Part shown: one piece after another, positions 29,707-58,142 of the stretch | How the letters are laid out: each line of letters opens with the position of its first letter | How positions within the stretch are numbered: the stretch's first letter is position 1 | Source: an uncultured bacterium | Lineage (GTDB): Bacteria > Fidelibacterota > Marinisomatia > Marinisomatales > JACNKV01 | NCBI GenBank assembly: GCA_964388155.1 | Contig: CAYLYH010000002.1 | Span: 9,887-73,886 of the forward strand | Reading direction: 5' to 3' | Length of the DNA stretch: 64,000 bases | Translations under genes and position numbers: made by a program | The notes under the pieces: model-generated | What the model was told of the DNA's origin: nothing | The model's input: the letters and a program-made list of their open reading frames with translations, nothing else | Database searches by the model: none

Positions 29707-35347
<5,641 letters not shown>

Positions 35348-35354
35348 TTAGGAA

Positions 35355-36191
35355 TTGAATAAATTAATGAACTTTACATTAAAACGAACCTTATTTCTTC
35401 TTCTTTTCATCTCAAGTTGTAAAGACCAAATCGACATTAAATCTGAAACAGCATTAAAATATTACGGCTATTATTGGGTTGAATCTGGTAGCTATGGCAG
35501 TCATATAAACGAATGTTCGGACTATACGAATCTCAACTGGGTGGAAAGAATAGACGATGTACAAGTTTGTGCAGAATTAAACATGCAAAGTATTCTTCAA
35601 GTAAGATGGCAATTTTTTATAGGTGGAGAATGCCAGAGCGGTGAAGGAGTAAATCCTTTGCGATCTGATTACCAGCACCAGTGGAATATTTTAGCAGAAA
35701 CGATTGAACCATTCATTGATCATATATCTGCATTTTATATGATTGACGAGCCGTATTGGAACTGCGTCAATGAAAGTGATCTCAACACAGCTATTGAAAT
35801 AGTAAAAGACACTTATCCAAAAATTCCCGTAATGGTTGTTTTTGCATATCCGTCTATGAATGAATCATTAACAATTCCTGAAAATGCTGATTGGATCGGG
35901 TTTGATCATTATGAATTAATAGAGATTGTGGAAGAGGATTTATCGATGTTGAAGAATGCGATGCACAGTCACCAAAAGATATTTTTGGTCCCGCAAAGTT
36001 TTCTAAATGCTTCCATAAATTCAGATGAAGTGTTAGCACGTTTGAACAACGTTTATTATGATTTAGCTATGAGCGATACAACAATAATTGGAATGTTGAA
36101 TTTTGGTCTTTGGACACATGAAGATCCATCTAATATTCAAAAAACACTTGAGACTCAAATTGAAATTGGAAATAATATAATCGGCGAATAA
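35355..36191 (+). CDS. Hypothetical lipoprotein, probable glycoside-hydrolase-like TIM barrel
   Basis: Lipobox ISSC. AFYMIDEPYW, DWIGFDHY and FLVPQSF patterns resemble GH-like (beta/alpha)8 barrels. Start TTG 35355 or ATG 35367. Confidence 0.55.
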   Translation: MNKLMNFTLKRTLFLLLFISSCKDQIDIKSETALKYYGYYWVESGSYGSHINECSDYTNLNWVERIDDVQVCAELNMQSILQVRWQFFIGGECQSGEGVNPLRSDYQHQWNILAETIEPFIDHISAFYMIDEPYWNCVNESDLNTAIEIVKDTYPKIPVMVVFAYPSMNESLTIPENADWIGFDHYELIEIVEEDLSMLKNAMHSHQKIFLVPQSFLNASINSDEVLARLNNVYYDLAMSDTTIIGMLNFGLWTHEDPSNIQKTLETQIEIGNNIIGE

Positions 36192-36198
36192 GTTAATT

Positions 36199-39021
36199 TT
36201 AATACGCGTCTTCAACTTCTTCAATTATTTTATCATAAGTTATTCTTGCGCGATCGAATGCTTGTTTAGCATCTTGGATTTCTTCCGGACTGATTTGGTC
36301 TTTTTTCATATGCCAGCATTGATCCACTGAAGCACGGCACCATTCAGCGCTTTCTTTTACCCGAATGGGCTTATCCTCAATCATCACAAAAAATGGATTT
36401 GTATGGAGTGCTTGGTAAATGCGTAAAGCCACCCAACTTGATTGCTCTAACTTGGTGTTAAAATAAATATTTGTCCACTGCCCGTTGGCTGTTATTGTTT
36501 GTTTCTCAACAGCAATACCATTTACGATCAGCTCAACTTCTATATCCTGTAAATTTTCTAATCGGGCTCGTTCAACATGCCAATAGGGTTTTGTACTGTA
36601 ACTGCTGGTGGAAATACTTGCACCAATTTGGCTTTGTTCTTCGGGTAACAATGCTGACACCTTCGCCGAAATTGTTAAATCATCTCTTTTGGATAAATGA
36701 ATTTCACTTTCTGTATCGCCTAATTCTTGATCGTTAATTATAAAATCAATCACATGGGAACGCCCATCGGACACATACCCATTTCCATCCAAAATTCCAT
36801 TCATGTATTTTTCGTAAGTGAGTTCTCCGTCAATTTTAATATAGCTGCGGGCATCTCCAACCCGTTCATCATAAATGCAGGGGAAGTCCGTTTCACCGCT
36901 CAATCTGGGGCGAAAACCACAATTCAGTGTATGATACCACATATTCAACTCCCAAGGAAATGGTGTGTCACCAACGGAATAAAAATCAACCACGCCTTCT
37001 GTGACTGTGACGATATATTCATTGGCACCAATGTCATCCATTCTGGGTAAAACATAGTTTGGCAGATTTTCAGTAGCTTTAATAGGATCTAATCCCCAGC
37101 CCGAATGGGCGTATCCTGTGATAGCATTTTGACTTTTTGCCCATTTCAAGATTGGCAAATTCCAAGTGGGCCATTCATCAATAATTGTCGTGCCGGGATA
37201 ATCATCTTCATTAAGTCCAAGAAGAACAATATGCCCGGCGTGAGACGATGGAAATCCGGAAATTTCTACATTATAGCGCATGATGTGGTTATGGTCTGCA
37301 GCAGGATGGTCACGTCCGGAAAAGTGCTCTTTTTGAACATACCAGTTCGGTCCCCAGTTAAGCACGTTGGTTACCCGCAGATCTTCACCCAATTGCAGAC
37401 GCCATATTTCTTCCGGCGAAACACCTTCTTCAGGATTGGTGTAAAAAGCACATCCTGCGGCATGGATGTGAGAGTCTGAACTATAATAATCCATTTTTTG
37501 CATATCTACCCATCGATCCAATTGAAAGGATGTATGAATTGAATCTGATTGTTGTGACACAATCAATGATTTCGTTTTAGAGATATATTCAGGTCCCCGC
37601 GTATAAGTAATATTGTATTTGCCTGGCGGTAACATAACGTGTTCTCCATCACCACGGTATATTTGAGATTGAAAGTAGAAATCCGGGTAGTCGTCTAAAC
37701 GTGAAAGTCGGCGGGATGGGAGTGGGTACAATCCTTCCAGGTTTTCTGGATAATATTCATACTCTCGTTCAGCATGGAGACGATAATCGTCAGATCGCAA
37801 AATATCGTGATATTCGGTTTCTTCGTGGCGTTCGATGCCATCGGTTATGGTAAATGAAGCCAGAGTAGGTGAACCATCATCATCCTTCACATGAAATACA
37901 ACAGGGATAGCCGGTTGTGCATGAGCGTTGAGCCTAACCCGTGCAGGATCCAAATTCCCCGAGCCCCATAATAATTGCACATTTGCAGTACCGCCACCTT
38001 CAAAATATTCAATTGTAATAGCGTAGGATTTGCCTTTGGTCAAACTCACATCAGCCGTACGCAGACGCGGACCATGCAACCCCCAATTCGCCACAATCAA
38101 TTCATCATCAAGATATAATCTTGTTCCGTCATTACTTTTTACACCAATTTGATATTTTGCTGTTTTTGTTGGTGTAAGAAAACTGGTCCATCGCACGGAA
38201 AATTTTTCTGTTTCTATCTTATCAGATGGGGTACCGGCTCCCCAATCGAAATTGATTGTTTCATCCAACCGCGTCAAAGATGGCTCCCCGGAAAAATCTT
38301 TGTTTTGGAAATATTCACCTCTCAAACCAATGGCATCACTTTCTAAAGACGGCTTTAGAAAAATGGAATCAATGACGGTTATATTTTCATAATAATCTCC
38401 AATATAGAAATCAATATCTGCTTTTATGTAGCCTTCGTTCTTACAATAAACCTGTAAAATGACATACTCAACAGTATCCCCGGAAAGATTTGGTTTGAGT
38501 GGTGCGTTCCGGTAAAAATAAAGTTCTAGAAACCGTTCTTCCAACTCTGTTTGTGTGTAAAAATCATCAGGATGCATTTTTTCTTCAGTTGTAGAAATAT
38601 CAAATAATGGTTCCGAATTAGGACTACGCACTTCTAATCTTCCTGTAAATTTGGCTTTATTAAGAATCTTCACCAAATAGTTTGCCCAACCACTTTGAAC
38701 CAAAGGCTGGAAAGGTTTTCCTTGAGTTACGGACACTTTATGGTTTTCATTAATAGAAACCATAGCCAAAGCATATGGATCTAATATAGATTGAAGAAGT
38801 GAATCAGAATGCTGGGATAAATTATTTAGTTGGGTAATGACTTCATAAGGGAGTGGAGACCCCAAATATTCCATAGTTTCTATAATATTTGTGGAATGAT
38901 CAATAGAAATAATATTTTTTCCGTTGATGATAGGTAAAGTGCTGATTTTTGGTGGGGTGGAATTACATGATTGAAAGACCAAACAATAATTAATAAGAAT
39001 GAAAAGAATGATCTTTTTCAT
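36199..39021 (-). CDS. CehA/McbA-family metallohydrolase lipoprotein with internal PA14 domain
   Basis: Lipobox FQSC. PA14 (GLRGEYFQN...INFDWGAG...FSVRWT...SNDGTRLYLD...IEYFEGGG). PHP-like DSHIH, GYAHSGWG, SGETDFPC. Confidence 0.75.
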   Translation of the reverse strand: MKKIILFILINYCLVFQSCNSTPPKISTLPIINGKNIISIDHSTNIIETMEYLGSPLPYEVITQLNNLSQHSDSLLQSILDPYALAMVSINENHKVSVTQGKPFQPLVQSGWANYLVKILNKAKFTGRLEVRSPNSEPLFDISTTEEKMHPDDFYTQTELEERFLELYFYRNAPLKPNLSGDTVEYVILQVYCKNEGYIKADIDFYIGDYYENITVIDSIFLKPSLESDAIGLRGEYFQNKDFSGEPSLTRLDETINFDWGAGTPSDKIETEKFSVRWTSFLTPTKTAKYQIGVKSNDGTRLYLDDELIVANWGLHGPRLRTADVSLTKGKSYAITIEYFEGGGTANVQLLWGSGNLDPARVRLNAHAQPAIPVVFHVKDDDGSPTLASFTITDGIERHEETEYHDILRSDDYRLHAEREYEYYPENLEGLYPLPSRRLSRLDDYPDFYFQSQIYRGDGEHVMLPPGKYNITYTRGPEYISKTKSLIVSQQSDSIHTSFQLDRWVDMQKMDYYSSDSHIHAAGCAFYTNPEEGVSPEEIWRLQLGEDLRVTNVLNWGPNWYVQKEHFSGRDHPAADHNHIMRYNVEISGFPSSHAGHIVLLGLNEDDYPGTTIIDEWPTWNLPILKWAKSQNAITGYAHSGWGLDPIKATENLPNYVLPRMDDIGANEYIVTVTEGVVDFYSVGDTPFPWELNMWYHTLNCGFRPRLSGETDFPCIYDERVGDARSYIKIDGELTYEKYMNGILDGNGYVSDGRSHVIDFIINDQELGDTESEIHLSKRDDLTISAKVSALLPEEQSQIGASISTSSYSTKPYWHVERARLENLQDIEVELIVNGIAVEKQTITANGQWTNIYFNTKLEQSSWVALRIYQALHTNPFFVMIEDKPIRVKESAEWCRASVDQCWHMKKDQISPEEIQDAKQAFDRARITYDKIIEEVEDAY

Positions 39022-39027
39022 CCTACA

Positions 39028-40245
39028 TTACTCCAACTCATAAATATGAACATCGAATGGTTCATAATCTTCTGTTAAAATACCGTCTTTAATTAGAATT
39101 GTTCTATCCTCTTTAAGTATTTTCGCTTGTTCGAAATTTCTCAAATTCCCCAAGGTAATTCGTACCGGATTTTTATCTGAATTGACTGTGATCAAATAAT
39201 ATTTTTCATCACTATTCTTTGCCAGAATCTCCACACCGGTATCGATGGAATACCGTAATTCGTGATATGTTTTTTCAATGTCCAAATCAATAGAATGGGA
39301 TGACAAAATATATTGCATTTCAGCTAATTCTTTGGTGACACGATTCAAATCCTCCATGAATTGCGAAGGTTGGGGAGAATAAGGCATTCCCCAATAGTTG
39401 ATACCGTTAGCGCCATGAACAATGGCATTGAAAGCCATAAAACGGGATTGTTTATAAGTCGGATATAATACCATGTCCGAATTTATTTCTTGCTCTTTTT
39501 TTAGCATTTCCCATGCGAATCCTTGAAGCACCATAAACAAAGGTTTTGAATGATTAGTAACACGGTGCATTTTTTCTGCATATTCTCCAACCTGACTAAT
39601 GTACGGATTCAGCAAATCGCCTTGAAGTCCATCCGGATACAACGCGTAGGTAGGCGTTATACCATTGGGAATAACAGGATAAACATCACAAGCCACAATA
39701 TCCGTTGATTCATTATATTTCTGTAAAGTTGAAATAAGATTGACAGGACCGTGATTGGTGTAAATCAGATGATTCGTATCTTCCTGCTTGATTAAATTAT
39801 ATGTCTCAATCATTATTTCAGGTCGAATTCGAAGGTCTGGAGAATTCCATGTGAATGCCGGTTCATCAGCAATTTCCCAACAGAGTAAAGATGGGTGAGA
39901 TTTATAGGTTTGAATCAACTCTGAAATTCGTTCTTTACCTTTTACATTTGATGCTAATCCTGTTGAAATACGGGTATAAAGATTATTTTGATGCGCCACA
40001 TCAAGCTCTTTTTGATTTGCTGAAACGTGAATATAATTATATCCGTTTTTCGCTAATTCTTTGAATGGATGGTCACTTTTTGGAAGATGATAGGATCCAA
40101 TGATAAATGTACGTTTGCCATTGATAACCAACATGCCATCATTGTCCCAAGTAAATTTGAGATTGGGTCTACTATGGCTTTCACATCCCCAGAATAAAAA
40201 CAGAGCGATAGTGAAGAAAAATATTTGTCTTGAATATTTTTCCAT
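39028..40245 (-). CDS. Hypothetical lipoprotein, probable glycoside-hydrolase-like TIM barrel
   Basis: Lipobox FWGC. LLCWEIADEP, DIVACDVYP, FMVLQGF, AIVHGANGINYW. Confidence 0.6.
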   Translation of the reverse strand: MEKYSRQIFFFTIALFLFWGCESHSRPNLKFTWDNDGMLVINGKRTFIIGSYHLPKSDHPFKELAKNGYNYIHVSANQKELDVAHQNNLYTRISTGLASNVKGKERISELIQTYKSHPSLLCWEIADEPAFTWNSPDLRIRPEIMIETYNLIKQEDTNHLIYTNHGPVNLISTLQKYNESTDIVACDVYPVIPNGITPTYALYPDGLQGDLLNPYISQVGEYAEKMHRVTNHSKPLFMVLQGFAWEMLKKEQEINSDMVLYPTYKQSRFMAFNAIVHGANGINYWGMPYSPQPSQFMEDLNRVTKELAEMQYILSSHSIDLDIEKTYHELRYSIDTGVEILAKNSDEKYYLITVNSDKNPVRITLGNLRNFEQAKILKEDRTILIKDGILTEDYEPFDVHIYELE

Positions 40246-40249
40246 ATAA

Positions 40250-41305
40250 TTATTTAATCATTTTAGGGTTTATCACCACATGTTTTACCATTTTTCGATT
40301 CCATGTATAAACGATGTGGATCAAGTTATCTTCAGTTTGGATTATGGCAGGATATGAATATTCTTCTTCATCTGTTGTTTCCGGATTAGTCACTTTTTCC
40401 AGTTGAATGACTTCTTTCCAAGTTTTTCCATCTTTGGATACGGCTACAGATAATGGGACACGATCTCCCCAGTTTTTATTGGTGGGATTATAAACCAATA
40501 AATGCCTTCCGTCTTTTAATGTTAATCCATCAATACCGGAGTTAGGATTTGGAAGAGTGGTCGCTTTCATTTCACTCCAAGTGTAACCATTATCTTTTGA
40601 CCAAGATTCAGAAATAACTTCATTTTTGGTTCGATTTAATAATTGAATTGTTTTATTTGGATGAACCAAAATGGTGGGTTGAATTGCACCAAACTCAACA
40701 CCGTCATTCAAATCTCCGGAAGATTTCCATGTTTTTCCATTATCAATAGATCGCTCTATTTGAATTTTCCAACCATCGTGTTCGGTGCTTGTCCCGGATA
40801 ATATATCACCATTTGATAATTGGATTGGTTTGTTTTTTATAGGACCATAAATCCCGTCGGGCAATTGAATTGGGTTAGACCAGGTTAATCCATGATTCTT
40901 GGATGTAACAAACATTCCCCACCATTCTCTTGGGTTGGGACCTACTTTGTAAAACAGAGTTAAAGGTGAATCTTTGGGTTGGAATAAAACGGGGTTCCAG
41001 CATGGGAAACGTGATCCATCATCTTGAATGCCATTTACAACTTCGACGGGAGTTGACCAATTTTTATTACTTTTTCTCGATACCCAGATCCCTACATCTT
41101 TATTTTTTTCTCTGGTACCACCAAACCATGCTGCGATTAGATTGTTTCCAGATGATACAATAGTAGATGCATGGCATTCCGGCGTAAGAGCATCTTCCAT
41201 TTCATAAATAAATTCTTGTGATACAATTAATCGGTTTGTTACTTCTTTATTACTACAGGATGATAAAAAGAAAATACCGAATAAAACACTTATGATGATT
41301 TTCAT
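40250..41305 (-). CDS. BNR/Asp-box sialidase-like beta-propeller lipoprotein (BNR_2)
   Basis: Asp-boxes SKNHGLTW, SIDNGKTW, SKDNGYTW, SKDGKTW. CHASTI, NPNSGID, YSYPAI. ATG 41305 overlaps the upstream TGA. Lipobox LSSC. Confidence 0.85.
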   Translation of the reverse strand: MKIIISVLFGIFFLSSCSNKEVTNRLIVSQEFIYEMEDALTPECHASTIVSSGNNLIAAWFGGTREKNKDVGIWVSRKSNKNWSTPVEVVNGIQDDGSRFPCWNPVLFQPKDSPLTLFYKVGPNPREWWGMFVTSKNHGLTWSNPIQLPDGIYGPIKNKPIQLSNGDILSGTSTEHDGWKIQIERSIDNGKTWKSSGDLNDGVEFGAIQPTILVHPNKTIQLLNRTKNEVISESWSKDNGYTWSEMKATTLPNPNSGIDGLTLKDGRHLLVYNPTNKNWGDRVPLSVAVSKDGKTWKEVIQLEKVTNPETTDEEEYSYPAIIQTEDNLIHIVYTWNRKMVKHVVINPKMIK

Positions 41306-44300
41306 TTGACTTTTCCTTCTGTTATTTCCTCGATGCAATCCAGCATTTCATTTCTGAATTTGACCATATTTAATTCGTTGCTCACCAAATCGAAGTTTTC
41401 GCGTGATACACCTAATTTCATGGCTTGATATCCCGGGTCAACCAAATCAATTAAACCGGATTCTAATAATTGATTAATTTTTTCTTGTAATCCGCTATTC
41501 AAATTTTGGTTTTCAGCAGCGATATTTTTTAGGGCAGAAAGAATTCGATAATCTTCAATACCTTCTCTCACTGCTTCCCAACGTCGGCTGGTAACCGGTT
41601 TTGTCCTGCCGGGATATACAAGGTTATATTCAAACTTGATACGTCCCCATGGATTTTCGCTATTCGCATTGTAGCACCAATATCCAATTCCCGATGCACC
41701 GGAGCGAAGTGCCATCAATGCAGCAGTGCGAAATTCGTACATCAAATTGATATTCTTTATATTGGGTCCGATTGGCCTAGATGAAGTATAAGTACAATTA
41801 TATGACCATAAATGATCTCCGACATTTTGCATTACATCCATTTCCGGGGAATCTTCAGAAAGCCAATCAAAGGGCGGAACCCAAACATCAATAACGGTTC
41901 CCATCGCGTTGAACATTGGCAACTCACCACCACCGTCTTGATAGAGCATAATATCAGGATGATTTTCATGAACTATTTCACCAAATTGCACTAATTTATT
42001 AACGGCATTCCAACCGTGACCGCCCGGCTCATCGATGGGGTAAATAGCAAATTGATTAGTATCGTATCCTGAATTTTTCAGATGCCTTTTCAAAGATTTC
42101 ATATACTTTGAAAGATCTTTTTTGTATTTGGCAGAACCGAATTCTCCCTTAATGGCAGGGAATCCACCAATCAGTAAAAACACATTGTGCTCTTTAAATT
42201 GATTCGTGATTTTATCCAGTTCGGAAAAATCAAAATTTTTAATCTTATCATATCGGTTATAAGTAATTTTACCGTGTGGAATCCGAAATACATTGTTTCC
42301 ATGAGCAAGCAAATCACTTATTTCAGGTCCTATAGAAGGAGACCATGTACATAACCTGAAGTCTTCCGGAGGGCTCATGGTAAAGAGAAAAACCTCCATC
42401 ATAATCTCTACATGCGTTTCCGGTGGTGAAGCTGCCTGCGGAGCTGAAGATGCATTGACCACACCATCACCGTTCAGAGCCTGTAATATAAGATCGATTT
42501 TATATTTACCTGGAGAATTTTCGGTCACGATGTCTAACCATACTTCCCGGGCAGTAAGAGAGGGAATCGTTACAATATTTGATTCATCCAATTCCGGCAT
42601 TGCATCCCAAGATTCTTCTCCGATGGATGTGATCGTATTCACGGACCGTAATAAAGTAACAGAAATCCCATCTTTTGTATTTTCGGTATGCACGCGTACA
42701 TTCAATAATTGATCGGTAATATTAAACAACATAAGCGATACAGGTTCATGTTCATTCAAAACGGTTCGACGGTTTATTTCCACAGGATTAACAACCCTTT
42801 CCGGCAATTGCAGATGAACATCTTTACTCTGCCAGTGAGTCCCCTCAAAAGCAATCAAACTTGTTCCGTCCCCAAGTTGAGTAGCTTTTTCACATACTGT
42901 ACTAATTTGAAACGCACGTTTAGCCTTCCGGTTAAGAGATGATGTTTGTTCAAATATTTTCTGATGAGCTGATGCTGAATTACCCGGGACACTATTTTGG
43001 AGAATCTGTATTTTGTCAAATTGTGACTGAAGCAACAGAGCTTTATGCCGCAAGGCGTTTGCGGTAAGCGGAATGTTTTTTTCGCATTCATCGGCCGTTG
43101 AAGCTAGTATGCCAATGGCTTGCTGAATTAACGACCTATCGTTATGAAAGGGTATAACCGCAATTTCTTTTGAATCTGAAAATAGGATTTTTTCATTTCC
43201 ATCGATCAACTCCCATGTAAAGCTATAATCACCGGGCTGTGCGATTTCAATTGGAAGAAGAAGTTGTCCCTTTTTTCCAATGATAGTTGATGTTGCTGTA
43301 TATTGCGTCCCGTTAGGACCTATACAAATTCCGTTGGCAGATAGTGACGTTGTAGTCGGATATGGATTTATAACATTAAAAATAACCGGTTCCCCAACAA
43401 AAAGTCTATCCCACTCTAGATTTTGCGGAACCATGCGTAATTGATTGGATTGTTTTAGTCCAAACCAAGAGCCTGTATTACGAATATCCCCACGGTAGGA
43501 ACTCCAATGTCTGATTGTTTTATTGGACGCAGGTGTTCCAAAGCAATAAGCCATTCCTGCTTCTCCACCTGTTAGGGCGAATTCCAGATCATCAACACTG
43601 CCTGAAATATTTCCAAAGGCAGGAGTATTATTAATGGAACGTGAAGGTAGTTGATGGTCAAAGATAATTTTTCCATCATTGCTGAAAGCTAAAATATGCC
43701 CACGCTGTGTTGATAAAATAAATTCCATTTCTCCGTCGTTATTAATATCAAGGATTGCGCCGGGCGCCAGCGTACGTCCCTGCATATCGATCTTCCATAT
43801 AACAGACCCTTTCTCATCAAATCGATAAATCACGCCTTTTTGTGTAATTGCAAAAATATCTGCACGCCCATTCAAGTTAAAATCACCAATAGAGATAGAC
43901 GATGCGATAGGGGAATTTGTCGGATAATCCCAAATCGGATTTCCATTCTTATCTAGACAATAAACAACACCATCAGCAGATGCGACGATAATATAGGTTT
44001 TACCATCCGATGCTGAAAACATGACTGGCGATGAGGTTGACCACGATGAAGATGCTTCTCCGATTTTATAATTCCACAATGTAGCTGTTTTATGATTCAT
44101 TGCTGTGACAACGCCGTCATTCGTAGAAAACACAATCTCCATTAAACCATCATTGTTAAGATCACCAACTGAAGGGCTCACCGGCGTTGCATCCAAAGTT
44201 GTATGATGATTCACGTTCCCTGTTAAAGCATCAAGAATCCATATAACTCCGCTTTGGTCTCCTTGGATAACTTCAATCTTTCCGTCATTGTTTAGATCAG

Positions 44301-44688
44301 AGAGAACATTCGCACACCACTCTACCCCGGCGTTTAGTTTTGTTTTCCACATTAGCTCTCCTGTACCGTTCAGACAGTGGAGATATCCACTTTTGTCCCC
44401 AACAAAAATAAGTACGGATTTGTTTTCTTGAATCAGTACTGAAGGATAAGTCATCAATCTTCCATCTGTTCTCCATTGCCATAATTCTTTTCCTTGTTTT
44501 CCTAACACGACTAACTCTTCATGACCGGCAATGATGGTTTCATCGTACCCATCATTATTAATGTCAGCAGCGATAGGAGCGCTTTCTAAAAAGACTTTTT
44601 GATTGGTTTCCCATTTAAGTGGAAGTTCAAGTTGTTGGGAAAAAGTTAATTGAAAAAAGGCTAGGGATAAAAAGATTTGGTTTTTCAT
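41302..44688 (-). CDS. PQQ-like/FG-GAP beta-propeller fused to a C-terminal GH123/DUF4091-like domain
   Basis: D-x-N-x-D-G Ca-binding repeats (DINNDG, DLNNDG, DFNLNG). C-terminal YPIDEPGG and VTSRRWEAVREGIEDYRIL, the latter a DUF4091-type motif. Confidence 0.7.
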   Translation of the reverse strand: MKNQIFLSLAFFQLTFSQQLELPLKWETNQKVFLESAPIAADINNDGYDETIIAGHEELVVLGKQGKELWQWRTDGRLMTYPSVLIQENKSVLIFVGDKSGYLHCLNGTGELMWKTKLNAGVEWCANVLSDLNNDGKIEVIQGDQSGVIWILDALTGNVNHHTTLDATPVSPSVGDLNNDGLMEIVFSTNDGVVTAMNHKTATLWNYKIGEASSSWSTSSPVMFSASDGKTYIIVASADGVVYCLDKNGNPIWDYPTNSPIASSISIGDFNLNGRADIFAITQKGVIYRFDEKGSVIWKIDMQGRTLAPGAILDINNDGEMEFILSTQRGHILAFSNDGKIIFDHQLPSRSINNTPAFGNISGSVDDLEFALTGGEAGMAYCFGTPASNKTIRHWSSYRGDIRNTGSWFGLKQSNQLRMVPQNLEWDRLFVGEPVIFNVINPYPTTTSLSANGICIGPNGTQYTATSTIIGKKGQLLLPIEIAQPGDYSFTWELIDGNEKILFSDSKEIAVIPFHNDRSLIQQAIGILASTADECEKNIPLTANALRHKALLLQSQFDKIQILQNSVPGNSASAHQKIFEQTSSLNRKAKRAFQISTVCEKATQLGDGTSLIAFEGTHWQSKDVHLQLPERVVNPVEINRRTVLNEHEPVSLMLFNITDQLLNVRVHTENTKDGISVTLLRSVNTITSIGEESWDAMPELDESNIVTIPSLTAREVWLDIVTENSPGKYKIDLILQALNGDGVVNASSAPQAASPPETHVEIMMEVFLFTMSPPEDFRLCTWSPSIGPEISDLLAHGNNVFRIPHGKITYNRYDKIKNFDFSELDKITNQFKEHNVFLLIGGFPAIKGEFGSAKYKKDLSKYMKSLKRHLKNSGYDTNQFAIYPIDEPGGHGWNAVNKLVQFGEIVHENHPDIMLYQDGGGELPMFNAMGTVIDVWVPPFDWLSEDSPEMDVMQNVGDHLWSYNCTYTSSRPIGPNIKNINLMYEFRTAALMALRSGASGIGYWCYNANSENPWGRIKFEYNLVYPGRTKPVTSRRWEAVREGIEDYRILSALKNIAAENQNLNSGLQEKINQLLESGLIDLVDPGYQAMKLGVSRENFDLVSNELNMVKFRNEMLDCIEEITEGKVK

Positions 44689-44755: not shown

Positions 44756-45916
44756 TTATCTGTTTCGTATCCACTCCTCGGTGAATTTAGCATGCATGAT
44801 CGTTTTGCCGATTGAATTTCGATGGGTGTAGGTCACATGAATCACACCATCCACTGTTTGGATCACAGAGGGATATCCATAAGATTCATTAGGTGACTTA
44901 CCGATATAGCGCTCCCATTTCCACGTTTGACCTTCATCATCGGATAAAGCCGCAGCAAAACTTCGACGATTATCCTCCGTATCGTTATAAAGCATCAACC
45001 AATGTCCGTTTTTAAGGACGATCACTTCAAGACTTGAACCCGGATTCAGGATATCAGTATCTTCAGCAAAAGACCATGTATCGCCATTGTCAGTTGAGAC
45101 ACTTTTCATTGCTCGATACGGCAGACTTCCGGAGTCACGTAAGTAGGCAACCAGCGTACCGTCTGACTTACGAACGATGGTTGGTTGTATCGGACCTAAC
45201 CCCACAATCGGAGAACTCGCACTCCAGGATTTGCCGACATCATCACTAATCGCCACTAAGGATACATTAAATCCGTCAGAGTACAGAGGGAGTAAAATAC
45301 GTCCGCTGGATAATACGGTGGGATGTATTCTAGTCATCCATCCTTTTTGGCGTTTTTCTTTATCTTCAGAAGCCTCAATAATCATCTGGCTGTACGGCAG
45401 AGCATATTCCGCCCACATTGGTTCATCCACATTTTTCTTGAAAGCGTGTTTAATGGCATTATGAAATCTTTCCCCAGGCGTCAGTACAATGATATCTTGC
45501 CAATTCCAAATTGGAGAACCGTCTTTTTGATAATCGGTTGACGTTTTATATCTGAGGATGGAGTTTTCCCAACCGTTGGCGCGTACTGCAATCCAAAACA
45601 ACCATAATTGCTCATTTTCGTCGATAAACAGAACCGGATTACAGTCCGGCAAATTAGGTGTGTCCGCCATAACAAACACCGAACTCCATACCGTTTCTCC
45701 TTTTTTTAATCTAGCTCCTTGAACCTGCACATCATTCGCAGTTCGTTCACCCGATCCATAGAACCAGCAAGCCAGCAAATCGCCGTTTGGCTGTTCAATA
45801 ATACTGCTGCCGTGCGCATGCTTTTCCTGAAAAGGGAATATTGGTTGTTGAACGATCTGTGACAATAGTGGCGTTATAGTTACTAATGCCATAAGAATTC
45901 GATATGATTTATTCAT
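44756..45916 (-). CDS. BNR/Asp-box sialidase-like beta-propeller protein (BNR_2)
   Basis: HAHGSSI, DCNPVLF, Asp-boxes SDDVGKSW, STDNGDTW, SDDEGQTW, and YGYPSV. Confidence 0.85.
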   Translation of the reverse strand: MNKSYRILMALVTITPLLSQIVQQPIFPFQEKHAHGSSIIEQPNGDLLACWFYGSGERTANDVQVQGARLKKGETVWSSVFVMADTPNLPDCNPVLFIDENEQLWLFWIAVRANGWENSILRYKTSTDYQKDGSPIWNWQDIIVLTPGERFHNAIKHAFKKNVDEPMWAEYALPYSQMIIEASEDKEKRQKGWMTRIHPTVLSSGRILLPLYSDGFNVSLVAISDDVGKSWSASSPIVGLGPIQPTIVRKSDGTLVAYLRDSGSLPYRAMKSVSTDNGDTWSFAEDTDILNPGSSLEVIVLKNGHWLMLYNDTEDNRRSFAAALSDDEGQTWKWERYIGKSPNESYGYPSVIQTVDGVIHVTYTHRNSIGKTIMHAKFTEEWIRNR

Positions 45917-45937: not shown

Positions 45938-48292
45938 TTATTCGGCAATAAACCCATGATAAAGCCCCATATAATACGGAAGTAAGAACACGGTTCCTGT
46001 TGATAGATTTTGTCCGTTACCGCCTGTGGTCAAATCCCAAGGATCGTGATTCCAATGGTTCACATGGCTTTCATCCACCGGAAATACTTTCCCATTTACA
46101 CGGTATCCTTTTCTTGAATTATCTTCGCGGTCAAATGTACGGTTCCAATGATGAAGTTTTTGCAGATCGATTCGATGATTATTGGAATGTCGCCAATCAA
46201 ATCTATCCAATGGAAAGCGAATCAATGTTTCAACAGACTCTTCCAGCCATTCTTCATGAGGTTCAAGGTCATATGTCCCCCAAGCATCGGTGAAATCTTG
46301 CCCGGAGGTGGCTGCCCTAAAGGCAAAATTAAAGAACGGATTCAATTCCGGTACTTCTAACATCCAATTCATATACATCGAAAACGAGTAGCGGGATTTT
46401 AATTCGGAGTCAGTCTCGTACTTGATTAAATGATAATAATTCATGAACGCCATTTCATCATCAGAATGGTTCCCTGTCCCTACACCGCGATTAAATTTCA
46501 TATCCGTCATATTTTGGGCGTAGCCATGTTCTTCGATTAGCATATCCGATATTTCACGATATCTTTTATCACCGGTCATGTGATAGGTAATCGCCAAATA
46601 GGATAACATACTTAGGGAATTTAATCCGCGCTCCACAAACCAGTTTTTGTCATGATTCAACTCATAGGGGTTAAACCGAGCCCAGCGGGTTGGTCTTCCG
46701 TCATGGTCAACCAGTTGAAAATCATGATCGATTAAATGATCCGTAAGCTTTTTCACATGAGACCGAACTCGCGATTTTTCTTCTTCGGTATCAGCAACCA
46801 GATCATAATACAGCCCGTAAAGAAAATAATGCCCGTCCAACTCATCGGAGCTGGTATCAGTTTTGTAATACCACTTCCCTGTTTTGTTTTTTGGCCATCT
46901 ATTTTCATAAACTTTCCATAGCTTATCATTGTTTTTTTTATTTCGGATATCGTCCTCAACCCGACCGATGTTAGGGTCATGACCGCTGGTGGGTAAGATG
47001 GTTCTGGCTACAAATCCCGGTGGCGGTGATATCAGCGCATCCTGTGTCACATCACCAAGAAATTTCAATGCGTCAAATGCTTTCTTTGCCCGTGCTTTTG
47101 CTTTAGGATCTTTTGTAGCTGCATAGGCAAAACATTCTCCTGCGCCGTACATCCCCGTCCATAATCCGTCATTATCACTATCATGTTGAATCCATTCAGA
47201 TTTGTCCCCGGAGATAGGAATTGTTACATCCAATACGTATTCGTACGGTGTACGACGGTGATAACGGTCTATTTCATCTTCATACCATTTTGCTTTTTCA
47301 GCCAGTGTCATTGTTTTATGGTATATGTTACCGATACCATCAGACGTGGCAATCCATGCACTCCCATCGGATGAAACGGCAATGTCAATCACTTCATCAT
47401 TTGGCAACCATCGTTTCCCCTGACGATATTCCCAGATTTCCCCGTCAAAATGGATGGCACCTTTATACGTACCAAACCATACATCACCATCAATACCTGC
47501 TGCCATTTTAGTAAAATCATTATAGGGTAAACCGTCTTTCCCCTCAAAGAGTGTCCAAACGTCGTCAAGAACTCCAGTTCCCTGCGGACTCGCAAACCAT
47601 AATCGATCTTTGGTATCAACCATCACACTACGACAATCATTAACTGCCCAGCTTCTGACACCGTCATCCGGTATAATTCGCACCCATTCCTTATTACTTT
47701 TACTGTGTTTGTAAATTCCGTTTTCAGTCGCAATAAAAATATTATTCTTTTTTGCTACGGCAATTTGACGGATCTCTTTGGCTGGGATGTCAAATCTCAT
47801 AACAGATTTTTTCCACCCGCTAGAAGTTGGTTTGATGGCATAAAGCTGTTCAACGCCGCTTAAGAGTATCCGTTTATCGAATGCCATATCACCACCCGTC
47901 ACAGGGACTTTCATTTTTTTCGGTAGAGTTAATTTATCGATGATTTTTCCTGTATGATCCAGAATGAAAATTTTACCACCCCGGGCTATTGAGGTGGATT
48001 CTGCTGAATAGACTGCAAGTTTATTCCCTTTGACAGCAAGATACCATATTTTCTTTCCTTCTAACTCCGGAACAGGAGTCCACTTATCTTCAGAAAACAC
48101 AGATAATCCGTTTTCGGTTCCGACATAGATGTTTCCATTTCTTGTGTTAGCTATGGTATTAATGTGGTTACTTGATAGCCCATCTTCAACTGTGTGAAAT
48201 GTCCGCAATTCCTGAGCAAACTCTTTAATGTGGATTTCTTCAGCTAATCCTGCAGTTATTGAAAGCAGTAATATTAATCCTATCTGGCGCAT
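45938..48292 (-). CDS. Uncharacterised secreted protein: Reg_prop-type beta-propeller plus helical C-terminal domain (DTSSDE family)
   Basis: DGLSSNHI / DGLPYND / WLPNDEV propeller repeats, then DSDNDGLWTGMY, KTDTSSDELDGH, FLLPYYMGLYHGFI. Paralog of 51380..53644. Confidence 0.7.
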   Translation of the reverse strand: MRQIGLILLLSITAGLAEEIHIKEFAQELRTFHTVEDGLSSNHINTIANTRNGNIYVGTENGLSVFSEDKWTPVPELEGKKIWYLAVKGNKLAVYSAESTSIARGGKIFILDHTGKIIDKLTLPKKMKVPVTGGDMAFDKRILLSGVEQLYAIKPTSSGWKKSVMRFDIPAKEIRQIAVAKKNNIFIATENGIYKHSKSNKEWVRIIPDDGVRSWAVNDCRSVMVDTKDRLWFASPQGTGVLDDVWTLFEGKDGLPYNDFTKMAAGIDGDVWFGTYKGAIHFDGEIWEYRQGKRWLPNDEVIDIAVSSDGSAWIATSDGIGNIYHKTMTLAEKAKWYEDEIDRYHRRTPYEYVLDVTIPISGDKSEWIQHDSDNDGLWTGMYGAGECFAYAATKDPKAKARAKKAFDALKFLGDVTQDALISPPPGFVARTILPTSGHDPNIGRVEDDIRNKKNNDKLWKVYENRWPKNKTGKWYYKTDTSSDELDGHYFLYGLYYDLVADTEEEKSRVRSHVKKLTDHLIDHDFQLVDHDGRPTRWARFNPYELNHDKNWFVERGLNSLSMLSYLAITYHMTGDKRYREISDMLIEEHGYAQNMTDMKFNRGVGTGNHSDDEMAFMNYYHLIKYETDSELKSRYSFSMYMNWMLEVPELNPFFNFAFRAATSGQDFTDAWGTYDLEPHEEWLEESVETLIRFPLDRFDWRHSNNHRIDLQKLHHWNRTFDREDNSRKGYRVNGKVFPVDESHVNHWNHDPWDLTTGGNGQNLSTGTVFLLPYYMGLYHGFIAE

Positions 48293-51379: not shown

Positions 51380-53644
51380 CTATTCTCCTATGTATCCATA
51401 GTACCGACCCATCCAATAAGGAAGTAGCCAAAATACGCCACTGCTTTCTACTTTGCCATAGTGTCCTTGATCAGCTATCCATGGATTATCATCCCAGCGA
51501 ACAACTCCTCGTTCAGATGGCGGTAGTAATCGTGCTGTCTGTATTTCTTCTATTTCAGGATAACGGGTAAATCTGACATCTTCACGTCCGGAATTATTCA
51601 CTCTCCAATGGATCAAATCCAGGGGAGCATCTTGTAAAAAATGAATAGATTGGTCAAGATTAGGATTTTCATCGGTACACATTCCATAGATAAAATTAAA
51701 AAATGAACTTTGATCATTTTCGACGGCATGATACCATCGATCCAGACTTTCCCGGTAGATATTTTTTAAGTACGGATCATCTTCTTTCAGCAGCAGGCAA
51801 GGATAAGCCAAAGCTAACAATTCATCATCTATGTGCGTTCGCCAAGACGGATTCAGCGATTTAGCTGTCTTTGTATTTTCTGCATAACCGTGTTCATGAA
51901 TCAATTTAAGGTATTCATCCTGATAACGTTCTTCACCTGAGACATAATATGCCAGTTTTAAGAATGAGAGAATTTCAACGGAGTTAATACCGCGGTCTGC
52001 CTTCCAATCCGGGTCATCATTCAATTTCTCCGGAGACCAAACAGCCCACCGAGTATGTGTCCCGTCAATATCTTTTAGTACAAATCCACTATCAATGATA
52101 TAGTCGACAATTTTGCGGATGTGCTCACGAATATCCGTTTTTTCTTCATCGTTTGCTACTAAATCATAATATAGAAAATAGCCGTACATATGCCCGGTAA
52201 TTTCATCACTGCTGGTATCGCCTTTCCACCACCATTTACCGTTTTGGGATTTACGCCACAATGTTGCCCTGGTCCGCTTTGCCCTTGGATCTCCGACTCT
52301 TTCCGAAGCCCAATCCTGATCGGTTATCCGTCTGTTTTTTTCTTCGATGTTTTTCCACGTAGACGGAATGACCGACCGGGCTACAAATCCATTCGTACTG
52401 GTGACAGTTTGCAGAAATTTCATTGCTGCATAGGCTTTATCGGCATTTTCCTTCGCTTCGGGGTCACCGGTATCCGCATAACGATAGGATTCCATTGCCA
52501 AATACATCCCGGTATATTGTCCGTCATTGTCATTTTCTAACGGCTGCCAAGATGATAAGTCACCCGGCTCAGACAGAAGACATTTTTCTACCAAATAAGG
52601 TTCACGAACATGCCTGGAGTAACATTTATCAAGAATCTCATCGGACTTTTCTTTTAGCGTCATCAAATTCTGCTTTATGATGCTAATCCCCTTGTCGGTA
52701 GCAATTAAGGCATTTCCCTCATCATCAAATATTATATCATTTACTTTATCGTCAAGCAACCAGCGTTTACTACGTCGCACAGACCATGATCCATTATAAA
52801 ACCGCGCTACACCTTTATCTGTCCCTACCCATATTTTTCCATCAGGACTACTTTCCACCACATTCACTGAAGCCGATGGTAATCCTTTTCTAGGCGTGTA
52901 ATGGTTGATTCTTTTACCTTCAGAGTGAACCGTGATGCCGCCCAATCCGCCAATCCAAAATTTATTATTTCCAACATACGCCATATCACGAATATCTGCG
53001 CTGAGAAGTTCTTTCTTATCCTGAATTAGAGCGTAACTTGCTCCATTATAGCGATATAAACCTATCCCGGTTGCAATCCATAATTTATTGTTATATTGTT
53101 TTACCGAGCGGATATTTTTAGAAATCGGAAGTTCGGTAAACGACCATTCTTCATTAGAACATTTCCACTGACCGTCGGGTCCATAAGCATGAATGACCCC
53201 GTTAAGTTCCGCAATTGCAGCGATTGGGGAATGAATATTCTCAACTTTGGTTAACTCTTTTTGGCTTAGTTCGTAAATTCCATTCCATGACCCAATTAGC
53301 AGTGTTCCTTTTGAAGATATAAAAAGATCAAAAACCGGACCTTTATTAGCAGACTCAAATAGGTTTGTCCAAATATTTTTCTCGAAATCATGCTGGTAAA
53401 AACCGGTTTTTGTCCCGCAAAAATATTGATTATTGAATTCCATTATAGTTAATACACATTCACCGTCATTTGAAATAGTATGTGGTTCATGCCATTCTTG
53501 TGTAAAAGGAATATCATAAACAGGAACATTCTCGGAAACTTCCTTAGTGCTGCAGCCTAGCAGAGTAAGCATTGAAGCAAGTAACATAAAAACAGTTATT
53601 TTACGTATTATCTCGACACCACGCTGAAAAAGAATAATAATCAT
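51380..53644 (-). CDS. Uncharacterised lipoprotein: beta-propeller plus helical C-terminal domain (DTSSDE family)
   Basis: Lipobox LLGC. KGLPSASV / WLLDDKV repeats. ENDNDGQYTGMY, KGDTSSDEITGH, WLLPYWMGRYYGYI. Exact start uncertain. Confidence 0.7.
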   Translation of the reverse strand: MIIILFQRGVEIIRKITVFMLLASMLTLLGCSTKEVSENVPVYDIPFTQEWHEPHTISNDGECVLTIMEFNNQYFCGTKTGFYQHDFEKNIWTNLFESANKGPVFDLFISSKGTLLIGSWNGIYELSQKELTKVENIHSPIAAIAELNGVIHAYGPDGQWKCSNEEWSFTELPISKNIRSVKQYNNKLWIATGIGLYRYNGASYALIQDKKELLSADIRDMAYVGNNKFWIGGLGGITVHSEGKRINHYTPRKGLPSASVNVVESSPDGKIWVGTDKGVARFYNGSWSVRRSKRWLLDDKVNDIIFDDEGNALIATDKGISIIKQNLMTLKEKSDEILDKCYSRHVREPYLVEKCLLSEPGDLSSWQPLENDNDGQYTGMYLAMESYRYADTGDPEAKENADKAYAAMKFLQTVTSTNGFVARSVIPSTWKNIEEKNRRITDQDWASERVGDPRAKRTRATLWRKSQNGKWWWKGDTSSDEITGHMYGYFLYYDLVANDEEKTDIREHIRKIVDYIIDSGFVLKDIDGTHTRWAVWSPEKLNDDPDWKADRGINSVEILSFLKLAYYVSGEERYQDEYLKLIHEHGYAENTKTAKSLNPSWRTHIDDELLALAYPCLLLKEDDPYLKNIYRESLDRWYHAVENDQSSFFNFIYGMCTDENPNLDQSIHFLQDAPLDLIHWRVNNSGREDVRFTRYPEIEEIQTARLLPPSERGVVRWDDNPWIADQGHYGKVESSGVFWLLPYWMGRYYGYIGE

Positions 53645-56240: not shown

Positions 56241-58142
56241 ATGCTAGAAAAACAACAAGTCGAATCAATACTAAGGAATATCCGTAGTGTTAAAATTTCC
56301 GTATATGGCGATTTTTGTCTGGATGCTTACTGGTTCATGGATCCGCGCGGCTCAGAAATATCAGTGGAAACTGGTTTAATGGCAGAAGCAGTCACCAGAC
56401 AAAAATATTCTCTGGGCGGTGCCGGTAATATCGTTGCCAATTTAGCTGCACTAAATCCGGCGGAAATTCAATCGATCGGTGTAATCGGGGATGATATATT
56501 CGGTCGCGAGCTTTTGCAGATATTGCAGAGATTAGGTGTAAAAACTTCTGGACTGACCATACAAAAGGATGACTTTGACACTGTTGTCTTCAGTAAACGA
56601 TATTTGCGAGGAGAAGAACAACCCCGTATTGACTTTGGTTTTTTCAATCAACGTTCTAAAGAAACAGATACAATTCTACTTAATTCATTTAAATTGGCAC
56701 TAGAATCTTCGGATGTGCTTATCCTAAATCAGCAAGTCCCCGGAAGCATTACAAATCCTCATTTCATTGATAAACTTAACCAACTAATTGCTGAATATCC
56801 CGACAAACTTGTATTGCTGGACTCTCGTCACTACTCCGATAATTTCAGCAACGTTTTTCTAAAAATAAATCAAGTTGAAGCTGCAATTCTGAACAACAGA
56901 AATGCCAATCCGGATGATACGTTTTCTTCAGCAGACTTAAAAGTTTTTGCTTCTGAACTCCACAAAATTTACCACAGACCCATATTTATCAGTCGTGGAG
57001 AGCACGGTCTGATTGGAACGGATAACAACGTTGAGTTTGAGGTATCAGGAATTCAGCTTGTAAATCAAGTGGATCCAGTCGGAGCTGGAGATACGATGCT
57101 CAGTGCCCTTGCATGTTGTCTGGGAGCAGGAGAATCCTCAGCTACTGCCGCAGAATTTGCAAATTATGCTTCGGCGGTAACAGTTCAGAAGTTGTTTCAA
57201 ACAGGGACTGCCTCCGGTGAAGAAATTCTGGATTTAGTTAATGAAGCTACATTCATTTATAATCCGGAATTGGCCGAAATCCCAGGCAAAGCCGAATATT
57301 TAACCGGTTCGCAAATTGAAATCTGTGTAGACACTAGGGACCTCCCCAGCGGTAATATTACACATGCTGTCTTTGATCACGACGGAACAATCAGTGTACT
57401 CAGAGAAGGTTGGGAAACAATCATGGAGCCCATGATGGTTAAGGCTATTCTTGGAGATGAGTATCATTCCGCAAATATATCATTCCGCAGTAAAGTAGCT
57501 GCCCGTGTCCGTAGTTTTATCGATAATACTACTGGAATCCAAACCATTCTCCAAATGGATGGTTTAGTTGATATCATCAAAGAATTTGGTTTTGTACCAA
57601 AAAATAAAATTCTTGATAAATTCGAATACAAAGCAATTTACAACGATGCTCTAATGAAGTCCGTAAATGAAAGAATTACAAAATTGAAAAATGGGCAAAT
57701 GACTCCCGTAGATTTTTCAGTACCGGGCAGTATTACATTCCTAAAAGATTTGCGCGAGCGCGGAATAACGCTATATCTCGCCAGCGGAACCGATGTGGAC
57801 GACGTCATTAATGAAGCGGAAATTATGGGGTATGCAGATCTGTTTAACGGCGGGATCTATGGAGCAGTCGGTGATGTAAGTAAATACTCCAAGAAAAAAG
57901 TTCTGCAGGAGATCATGGCAAAAAACAAATTGAATGGCCCTGAGCTAATCACATTTGGAGACGGTCCTGTAGAAATACGTGAGTGTGTGAAAAATAAAGG
58001 AATTGCCGTTGGAATTGCCAGTGATGAAAAACATCCGGGACAACTTGAAAAAAACAAACGTTGCCGATTGATAAAAGCCGGTGCAAAATTGATTGCCAGA
58101 GATTTTCTAGAATCAGAAATATTAATAAATTTATTAACATAA
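56241..58142 (+). CDS. HldE/RfaE-type PfkB sugar kinase fused to a HAD-superfamily phosphatase
   Basis: Kinase: [42 protein letters not shown]: motif I VFDHDGT, motif II LASGT, motif IV FGDGPVE. No adenylyltransferase domain. Confidence 0.85.

Follow-up and report, generated by a model that had tools for sequence, protein, structure and literature searches.

Three genes are described from a window of 64,000 nucleotides (nt), by which the whole stretch of DNA analysed is meant (contig CAYLYH010000002.1 of assembly GCA_964388155.1, positions 9,887 to 73,886 of the forward strand; uncultured bacterium of the order Marinisomatales). Their products, of 278, 405 and 1128 amino acids (aa) and here called P0001, P0002 and P0003, each carry an Asp-Glu-Pro (D-E-P) motif. 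As judged from family profiles and predicted models, P0001 and P0002 are two distantly related, unnamed families on a barrel of the type found in glycoside hydrolase (GH) families GH42 and GH164 of clan GH-A. Their scaffold is GH42-like in its sequence features, with Asn-Glu replaced by Asp-Glu at strand 4 and with a strand 7 that has no carboxylate. As the simplest interpretation we propose tentatively, at rather less than even confidence in the joint claim, that this GH-A-derived lineage now cleaves beta-linked 2-acetamido sugars by a substrate-assisted route. P0003 is, by sequence, a new member of the known, enlarged GH123 family, with an N-terminal propeller fused to it. That the three together are exported glycosidases with a triosephosphate isomerase (TIM) barrel, belonging to two lineages and encoded in two convergent operons, seems to us an evenly balanced proposition.

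Placement and conservation of the D-E-P motif

All three open reading frames (ORFs) were confirmed in the window, and their translations hold the strings FYMIDEPYW (P0001), WEIADEPAF (P0002) and YPIDEPGG (P0003), at the places where an earlier reading of the letters alone (the sequence-only reading) had located them. The bare tripeptide is not significant (5 occurrences in the 20,720 residues of the window's ORFs vs 2.9 expected); its placement and conservation are. In the AlphaFold models of P0001 and P0002 the Asp is the final residue of barrel strand 4 and the Glu is the next residue; the equivalent placement in P0003 was taken from alignment to solved GH123-group enzymes and not from a model. 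The motif thus follows a beta-strand, as had been predicted, and the reading of all three proteins as TIM-barrel, glycosidase-like enzymes is supported. Glu and Pro are invariant in the family alignment of P0001 and Asp is conserved in at least 90% of it; the whole motif is unchanged in another 21 genomic homologues of P0001, in the close-family alignment of P0002 and in the family alignment of P0003. Export leaders were recognized in all three translations: P0001 and P0002 each have a lipobox, and P0003 has a type I signal.

Fold and kinship of the two small proteins

The model of P0001 (predicted local distance difference test, pLDDT, 88.9) is a bare (beta/alpha)8 barrel of ~245 residues, with GH164 (Z 18.8) and GH42 (Z 18.6) as best structural matches, followed by GH2, GH35 and GH5, all at Z 17-19. 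The model of P0002 (pLDDT 86.6) is matched best by GH164 (Z 27.0), GH42 (Z 25.1) and GH140 (Z 23.9), all leading matches being members of clan GH-A. By their barrel and nearest structural neighbours both proteins therefore fall within the clan. They depart from it at the Asn-Glu pair, in which Glu is invariant but preceded by Asp, and at the strand-7 nucleophile Glu, the place of which is taken by Leu240/Gln241 in P0002 and by Gln214 in P0001. Glu132 of P0001 is the putative acid/base, with Asp131 at the putative position of the clan's Asn.

The profiles of the two families were aligned to each other by hhalign with 90.7% probability and an expectation value (E) of 1.3e-6, in a register that pairs the D-E-P motifs, the D-x-Y motifs and the Gln-bearing ends of strand 7. 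The P0002 profile also matched GH158 (E 3.4e-10) with D-E opposite the canonical N-E; P0002 was not assigned to GH158, the match being confined to strands 2-6 and Asp replacing Asn. When a canonical GH42 from a related genome was aligned to the P0002 family, strands 5, 6, 7 and 8 matched and the GH42 nucleophile Glu fell on Leu240, beside Gln241; the strings flanking strand 4 in P0002 and in the canonical GH42 correspond by eye. The same GH42 contains the pattern D-x(4)-D-x-Y, which is thus an ordinary strand-6 motif of GH42 and not, as the sequence-only reading had it, a hexosaminidase feature. That reading had left a choice between hexosaminidase-like and GH-A-like enzymes: in the two small proteins a GH-A-like fold is combined with a hexosaminidase-like strand-4 pair, and the strand-7 nucleophile is absent.

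Neither small protein matched a Pfam or NCBIfam family above cut-off. For P0001 there was no Pfam match to GH42 or GH2_C, and for P0002 GH2_C reached 19.8 bits vs a gathering score of 21. GH20 (PF00728) gave no match at E<=0.01 for any of the three proteins. Several other candidates were judged unlikely or rejected. The GH156 TIM-barrel sialidases have their catalytic Asp on strand 1, a His near strand 4 and a carboxylate triad of Arg/Arg/Asn (PMC6811678); no obvious equivalent of the catalytic Asp14/His134 or of the triad was recognized among the residues conserved in P0002, and GH156 is not among the 50 best structural matches listed for that protein. The substrate-assisted enzymes of GH185/GH163 (DUF4838; PMC10570127) belong to a different Pfam family, which gave no match here. 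PF26410, present in the precomputed annotation of some homologues, was without match in a Pfam scan whose library did not contain PF26410. Literature searches for a clan GH-A family without nucleophile, and for a heptosidase or ketodeoxyoctonic acid (Kdo) hydrolase of this fold, returned nothing relevant.

Conservation within the two small families

A profile search of 1.84 billion representatives with P0002 returned 5,109 at E<=1e-3, 277 of them at E<=1e-30. Residue conservation was counted in the best 150 of the 5,109 (mutually <50% identical), with ~130-140 sequences counted per position. Over these representatives (~129-140), conservation was 100% for Glu128, 96% for Asp127 (n=129), 91% for Asn164, 94% for Asp187, 99% for Tyr189, 99% for Gln241 and 94% for Trp245, and polar and aromatic residues that form a ring on strands 2, 4, 5, 6, 7 and 8 are conserved across >100 divergent representatives. 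Asp127 and Asp187 covary: the five representatives with Asn127 (P0277, P0295, P0289, P0306 and P0353) have Asn or Ala at position 187 and keep Gln241. It may be that both Asp residues together contact a single group of the substrate or a cation. Many relatives are of 700-1,200 aa and carry carbohydrate-binding modules (CBM9 or CBM4_9); their names at NCBI are only 'hypothetical' or 'sugar-binding protein'. Glu221 of P0002, which a weak hhalign alignment (15%) pairs with the LacZ-type nucleophile of the GH2 in the window, was considered as a displaced nucleophile and rejected, as Asp, Lys and Ala occur at this position across the superfamily.

The P0001 family is rare (26 matches among 5.8 billion clusters; 21 genomic loci). 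Its strand-7 position is occupied by Gln in the clade of P0001, by Asp in one more distant clade and by Glu in one locus. Homologues from Bacteroidota are of 512-520 aa, with an additional N-terminal domain of ~260 residues that has no Pfam match (long forms in loci L006:9200-12345, Maribellus, and L009:9227-10765, Polaribacter). In Maribellus two tandem P0001 homologues belong to a SusC/SusD locus that also encodes a SASA esterase, a GH78 and an unassigned 445-aa protein. Next to the 21 genomic homologues no gene of the window recurs. Since the database copy (P0004) has 274 aa, translation of the P0001 gene probably begins at the ATG at 35367.

Proposed mechanism of the small proteins and its rivals

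Mechanism and substrate are inferred here from the fold, lineage and residue conservation observed above. In P0001 and P0002 the acid/base Glu of strand 4 would have been kept, the preceding Asn would have become Asp, and the carboxylate nucleophile of strand 7 would have been lost; the 2-acetamido group of the substrate would then give anchimeric assistance in place of an enzymic nucleophile. The three features together form the pattern that a switch to 2-acetamido assistance would produce. GH20, GH123 and GH18 have such a substrate-assisted arrangement, and GH85 shows that a variant with Asn can work as well. To our knowledge, substrate-assisted catalysis in these families would be the first in any clan GH-A lineage. 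Whether the change extends to the whole GH42-derived P0002 superfamily (5,100 or more clusters at 50% identity) together with the P0001 family, such that all would have dropped the nucleophile and turned Asn-Glu into Asp-Glu, is a wider claim, and a doubtful one.

Several points weigh against the proposal. The neighbours of P0002 homologues suggest ulosonic- or sialic-acid catabolism and a heptose-type kinase, not hexosamine genes, and the genome already has one GH20, on another contig (C37). The Asp or Glu at strand 7 in distant P0001 clades means that loss of the carboxylate is not family-wide there. Asp187, with its conservation and its covariation with Asp127, could be a relocated catalytic carboxylate. 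The families were, moreover, judged unnamed by Pfam and NCBIfam, and a very recent CAZy family may cover the small proteins.

The point about Asp187 leads to the first rival, credible in view of the ulosonic-acid character of the neighbourhood, although we regard it as rather unlikely: that the second catalytic carboxylate is now supplied by strand 6 instead of strand 7 (Asp184 in P0001, Asp187 in P0002) and that the enzymes act by double displacement or inversion on sugars other than 2-acetamido sugars. Candidate substrates would be residues of the ulosonic-acid, heptose or mannose type in the glycan that is attacked by the neighbouring sialidase-fold enzymes. Asp187 is lost only in the five representatives with Asn127, and Asp184 is nearly invariant in the P0001 family; GH164, a beta-mannosidase family, is the best structural match; and the neighbours of P0002 homologues are enriched for BNR_2, aldolases of the dihydrodipicolinate synthase (DHDPS) type, SSF, GFO/IDH/MocA and PfkB-HAD kinase. 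The canonical GH42, however, has the strand-6 D-x-Y motif and yet uses the strand-7 Glu, so that a strand-6 Asp need not be catalytic. Relocation also leaves the change of Asn to Asp beside the acid/base unexplained, and we know of no precedent in clan GH-A for a carboxylate moved from strand 7 to strand 6.

It is improbable that the small proteins are not glycoside hydrolases at all and serve in carbohydrate binding, or in transglycosylation, lyase or esterase chemistry. The absent canonical nucleophile, the database names of the relatives and the lack of a Pfam or NCBIfam assignment would agree with this; Glu128, invariant at the exact acid/base position and set in a conserved polar and aromatic ring typical of an active site, argues against it, as do the CBM fusions of the relatives, usual for catalytic modules, and the position of the genes within glycosidase operons. 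Equally improbable is that D-E-P is shared by all three proteins through coincidence or convergence without common origin, since, despite the modest tripeptide count and the profile comparison of P0003 given below, the motif is homologous between the two small proteins and conserved at the same structural site, the end of strand 4, in all three; had the device arisen by convergence, that in itself would speak for substrate assistance.

The GH123-type enzyme P0003

The sequence-only reading had counted all three proteins as unclassified, which holds for the two small ones; the C-terminal half of P0003 passes the Pfam family GH123_cat (DUF4091, PF13320) with 51.6 bits vs a cut-off of 23.1 (54.8 bits when the genome was searched). 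Among solved structures, the beta-N-acetylgalactosaminidases 8k2j (E 1.7e-10) and 8k2f were matched by the C-terminal part. In the alignment to 8k2j, D-E-P stands opposite D-E-P, and the register is kept through the Tyr, Gly...Trp and Tyr-Pro-Gly...Arg blocks; the analogy with the Asp-Glu pair of GH123, drawn earlier from the letters, is thereby borne out for this protein. The pair carries out substrate-assisted catalysis in GH123, and nine residues are conserved across the enlarged family, which include, in NgaLy, Y392, G427, W431, Y466 and R478, plus D95 and W115 (PMC11087588). Seven of the nine are aligned in P0003 and invariant in 26 homologues (Asp886, Glu887, Tyr963, Gly1000, Trp1004, Tyr1025 and Arg1036); the likewise invariant Asp695 and Trp717 are, by spacing only, candidates for D95 and W115, which belong to the N-terminal beta-sandwich docking on DUF4091.

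P0003 is probably a GH123 member acting as a retaining beta-N-acetylgalactosaminidase or hexosaminidase with substrate assistance, a mechanism that its family membership supports well. The attack on C1 would come from the 2-acetamido group of the substrate itself, polarised by Asp886, with Glu887 as acid/base; the propeller would be an added binding module or a second module. The propeller also matches designed propellers in the PDB. The combination of propeller and GH123 module is found again in >100 homologues, which come from Bacteroidota, Verrucomicrobiota, Planctomycetota and further phyla.

About one third of the listed relatives of P0003 (~1,440-1,456 aa; e.g. P0151, P0152 and P0154) have an additional C-terminal ChbG/YdjC (PF04794) deacetylase domain; this fusion of propeller, GH123 module and deacetylase is not found in the window copy. 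The presence of the deacetylase domain on many homologues points to N-acetylated substrates. A characterised precedent for the pairing of a sialidase with GH123, SiaBb3, is given in PMC12856340.

Compared with the profiles of the two small families, P0003 reached only 27% and 2% probability, neither of which is significant. Homology of P0003 to the small families was rejected on this basis, and the earlier grouping of all three proteins does not hold.

Genomic context and distribution

The plus-strand operon consists of an SSF transporter, a GH2 and, as its last gene, P0001. Convergent with it is an eight-gene operon on the minus strand, in the order propeller protein, GH38, propeller protein, BNR_2, P0003, BNR_2, P0002 and PA14-metallohydrolase. 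Coordinates are collected in Table 1.

Table 1 Features of the three D-E-P genes and of their neighbours in the window. Gene and residue assignments are by similarity; P0001, 278-aa protein; P0002, 405-aa protein; P0003, 1128-aa protein.
Feature	Position	Strand	Remarks
P0001 gene	35355..36191	+	278 aa lipoprotein, compact GH42/GH-A-like (beta/alpha)8 barrel (predicted)
P0001 D-E-P, Asp131-Glu132-Pro133	35745..35753	+	End of barrel strand 4 (model strand 124-131)
P0001 strand-6 D-x(4)-D-x-Y, residues 179-186 (Asp179, Asp184, Tyr186)	35889..35912	+	Shared with canonical GH42
P0001 strand-7 end, Gln214 at GH-A nucleophile site	35988..36002	+	From hhalign register with the 405-aa family
P0002 gene	39028..40245	-	405 aa lipoprotein, GH42/GH164-like barrel and C-terminal beta-sandwich (predicted)
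P0002 D-E-P, Asp127-Glu128-Pro129	39859..39867	-	End of barrel strand 4 (model strand 120-127)
P0002 strand-6 motif, D-x(4)-D-x-Y residues 182-189 (Asp182, Asp187, Tyr189, Pro190)	39676..39702	-	Shared with GH42
P0002 strand-7 end, Leu240-Gln241, Phe243, Trp245	39511..39531	-	Model strand 236-241; no carboxylate at GH42 nucleophile site
P0003 gene	41302..44688	-	1128 aa, secreted; signal peptide, beta-propeller, GH123-type module
P0003 N-terminal FG-GAP/PQQ-like beta-propeller	43489..44601	-	~residues 30-400; Pfam FG-GAP_3, PQQ_2, Beta-prop_CGLA
P0003 D-E-P, Asp886-Glu887-Pro888	42025..42033	-	Aligned with catalytic Asp-Glu of GH123-group 8k2j
P0003 Tyr963, Gly1000, Trp1004, Tyr1025, Arg1036 (DUF4091 region)	41575..41808	-	Aligned to 8k2j and 8k2f
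GH2 LacZ-type beta-galactosidase	31337..35347	+	7 nt upstream of P0001 gene
PA14 and CehA/McbA-family metallohydrolase	36199-39021	-	940 aa; NF038032, 240 bits; directly downstream of P0002 gene
BNR_2 sialidase-fold gene	40250..41338	-	Between P0003 and P0002 genes; BNR_2 E 4.5e-84; distant matches NanC, BT1020
Second BNR_2 sialidase-fold gene	44756..45916	-	Upstream of P0003 gene
Two paralogous propeller proteins	45938-48292 and 51380-53644	-	~750-780 aa; Reg_prop repeats; weak PorZ and F510_1955 glycosylhydrolase matches

The BNR_2 gene between P0003 and P0002 was called from a TTG start (41338) that overlaps the 3' end of the P0003 gene by 37 nt (41302-41338); its real start probably lies further downstream. 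Other genes, placed downstream in the window, encode an aldolase of DHDPS/NanA-like type, SSF transporters, a PfkB-HAD kinase (56241-58142), an epimerase and a GH3.

In 42 metagenomic loci with P0002 homologues the following were found nearby: BNR_2 (10 loci); DHDPS-type aldolase (8); SSF (6); aldose epimerase (6); the ~750-780-aa propeller proteins (6); GFO/IDH/MocA (5); GDPD (5); PfkB-HAD kinase (4); and P0003-like genes (3). The three closest metagenomic loci (L024-L026) have preserved the pairing of P0002 with the PA14-CehA/McbA protein. Homologues of the PfkB-HAD 'heptose-type' kinase adjoin P0002 homologues in three loci (L048, L052 and L067) and lie within ~7 kb in a fourth, which hints at a functional link of the P0002 barrel family with the sugar of this kinase. 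For five pairs of P0002 and P0003 homologues the longest contigs are of identical length, so that the two members of a pair may share a contig.

Among 30 related genomes (same genus or order), a single one, from the same genus, has the P0002 family, and GH123_cat was not found (0/30), from which we take the genes to be accessory in the lineage; the closest homologues are annotated as belonging to Bacteroidota and other phyla. These observations fit genes that are accessory and possibly laterally acquired.

Significance

Clan GH-A is the textbook example of a conserved two-glutamate retaining mechanism. If the proposal for the small proteins is true, a large branch of the clan, widespread in the environment, has kept the fold and the acid/base and has no strand-7 carboxylate, and would illustrate the way in which the scaffold of a glycosidase takes on another mechanism. 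It would establish one or two new glycoside hydrolase families, and with them names for thousands of proteins now called 'hypothetical' or 'sugar-binding' in Bacteroidota, Planctomycetota, Verrucomicrobiota, Armatimonadota and marine groups. P0003 alone would be an ordinary addition to a known family; the locus as a whole offers three candidate enzymes for the trimming of sialylated or N-acetylhexosamine (HexNAc)-containing marine glycans.

Comparison with known glycoside hydrolases

P0003 resembles the GH123 enzymes (NgaDssm, 8K2J; NgaCa, 8K2F; NgaLy; BvGH123; CpNga123) in its match to the family's hidden Markov model, in D-E-P and in the signature residues, and by analogy would be expected to use the same substrate-assisted mechanism as the solved members. 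It differs from these in its low identity, in a match limited to ~200 residues and in the ~370-residue propeller that precedes the module.

The small proteins are like GH42 and the GH164 beta-mannosidase in the barrel, the site of the acid/base Glu, the strand-6 D-x(4)-D-x-Y-P and the strand-8 motif, and P0002 also shares the GH42/GH164 plan of a barrel followed by a C-terminal beta-sandwich. Unlike GH42 and GH164, they have Asp in place of Asn before the putative acid/base, and Leu-Gln (P0002) or Pro-Gln (P0001) in place of the nucleophile Glu; unlike GH42, they score below the Pfam cut-off for that family, and P0001 is a bare barrel.

The GH158 endo-beta-1,3-glucanases (9ORO, 6PAL) are the closest solved relatives of the P0002 family by sequence profile; unlike P0002 they have the canonical Asn-Glu, and the alignment ends before strand 7. 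GH158 has a Glu nucleophile. In the clan GH-K families GH20, GH18 and GH85, strand 4 of the TIM barrel ends in an Asp-Glu or Asn-x-Glu pair, and there is no enzymic nucleophile; the fold neighbours of the small proteins are nevertheless those of clan GH-A, not GH-K.

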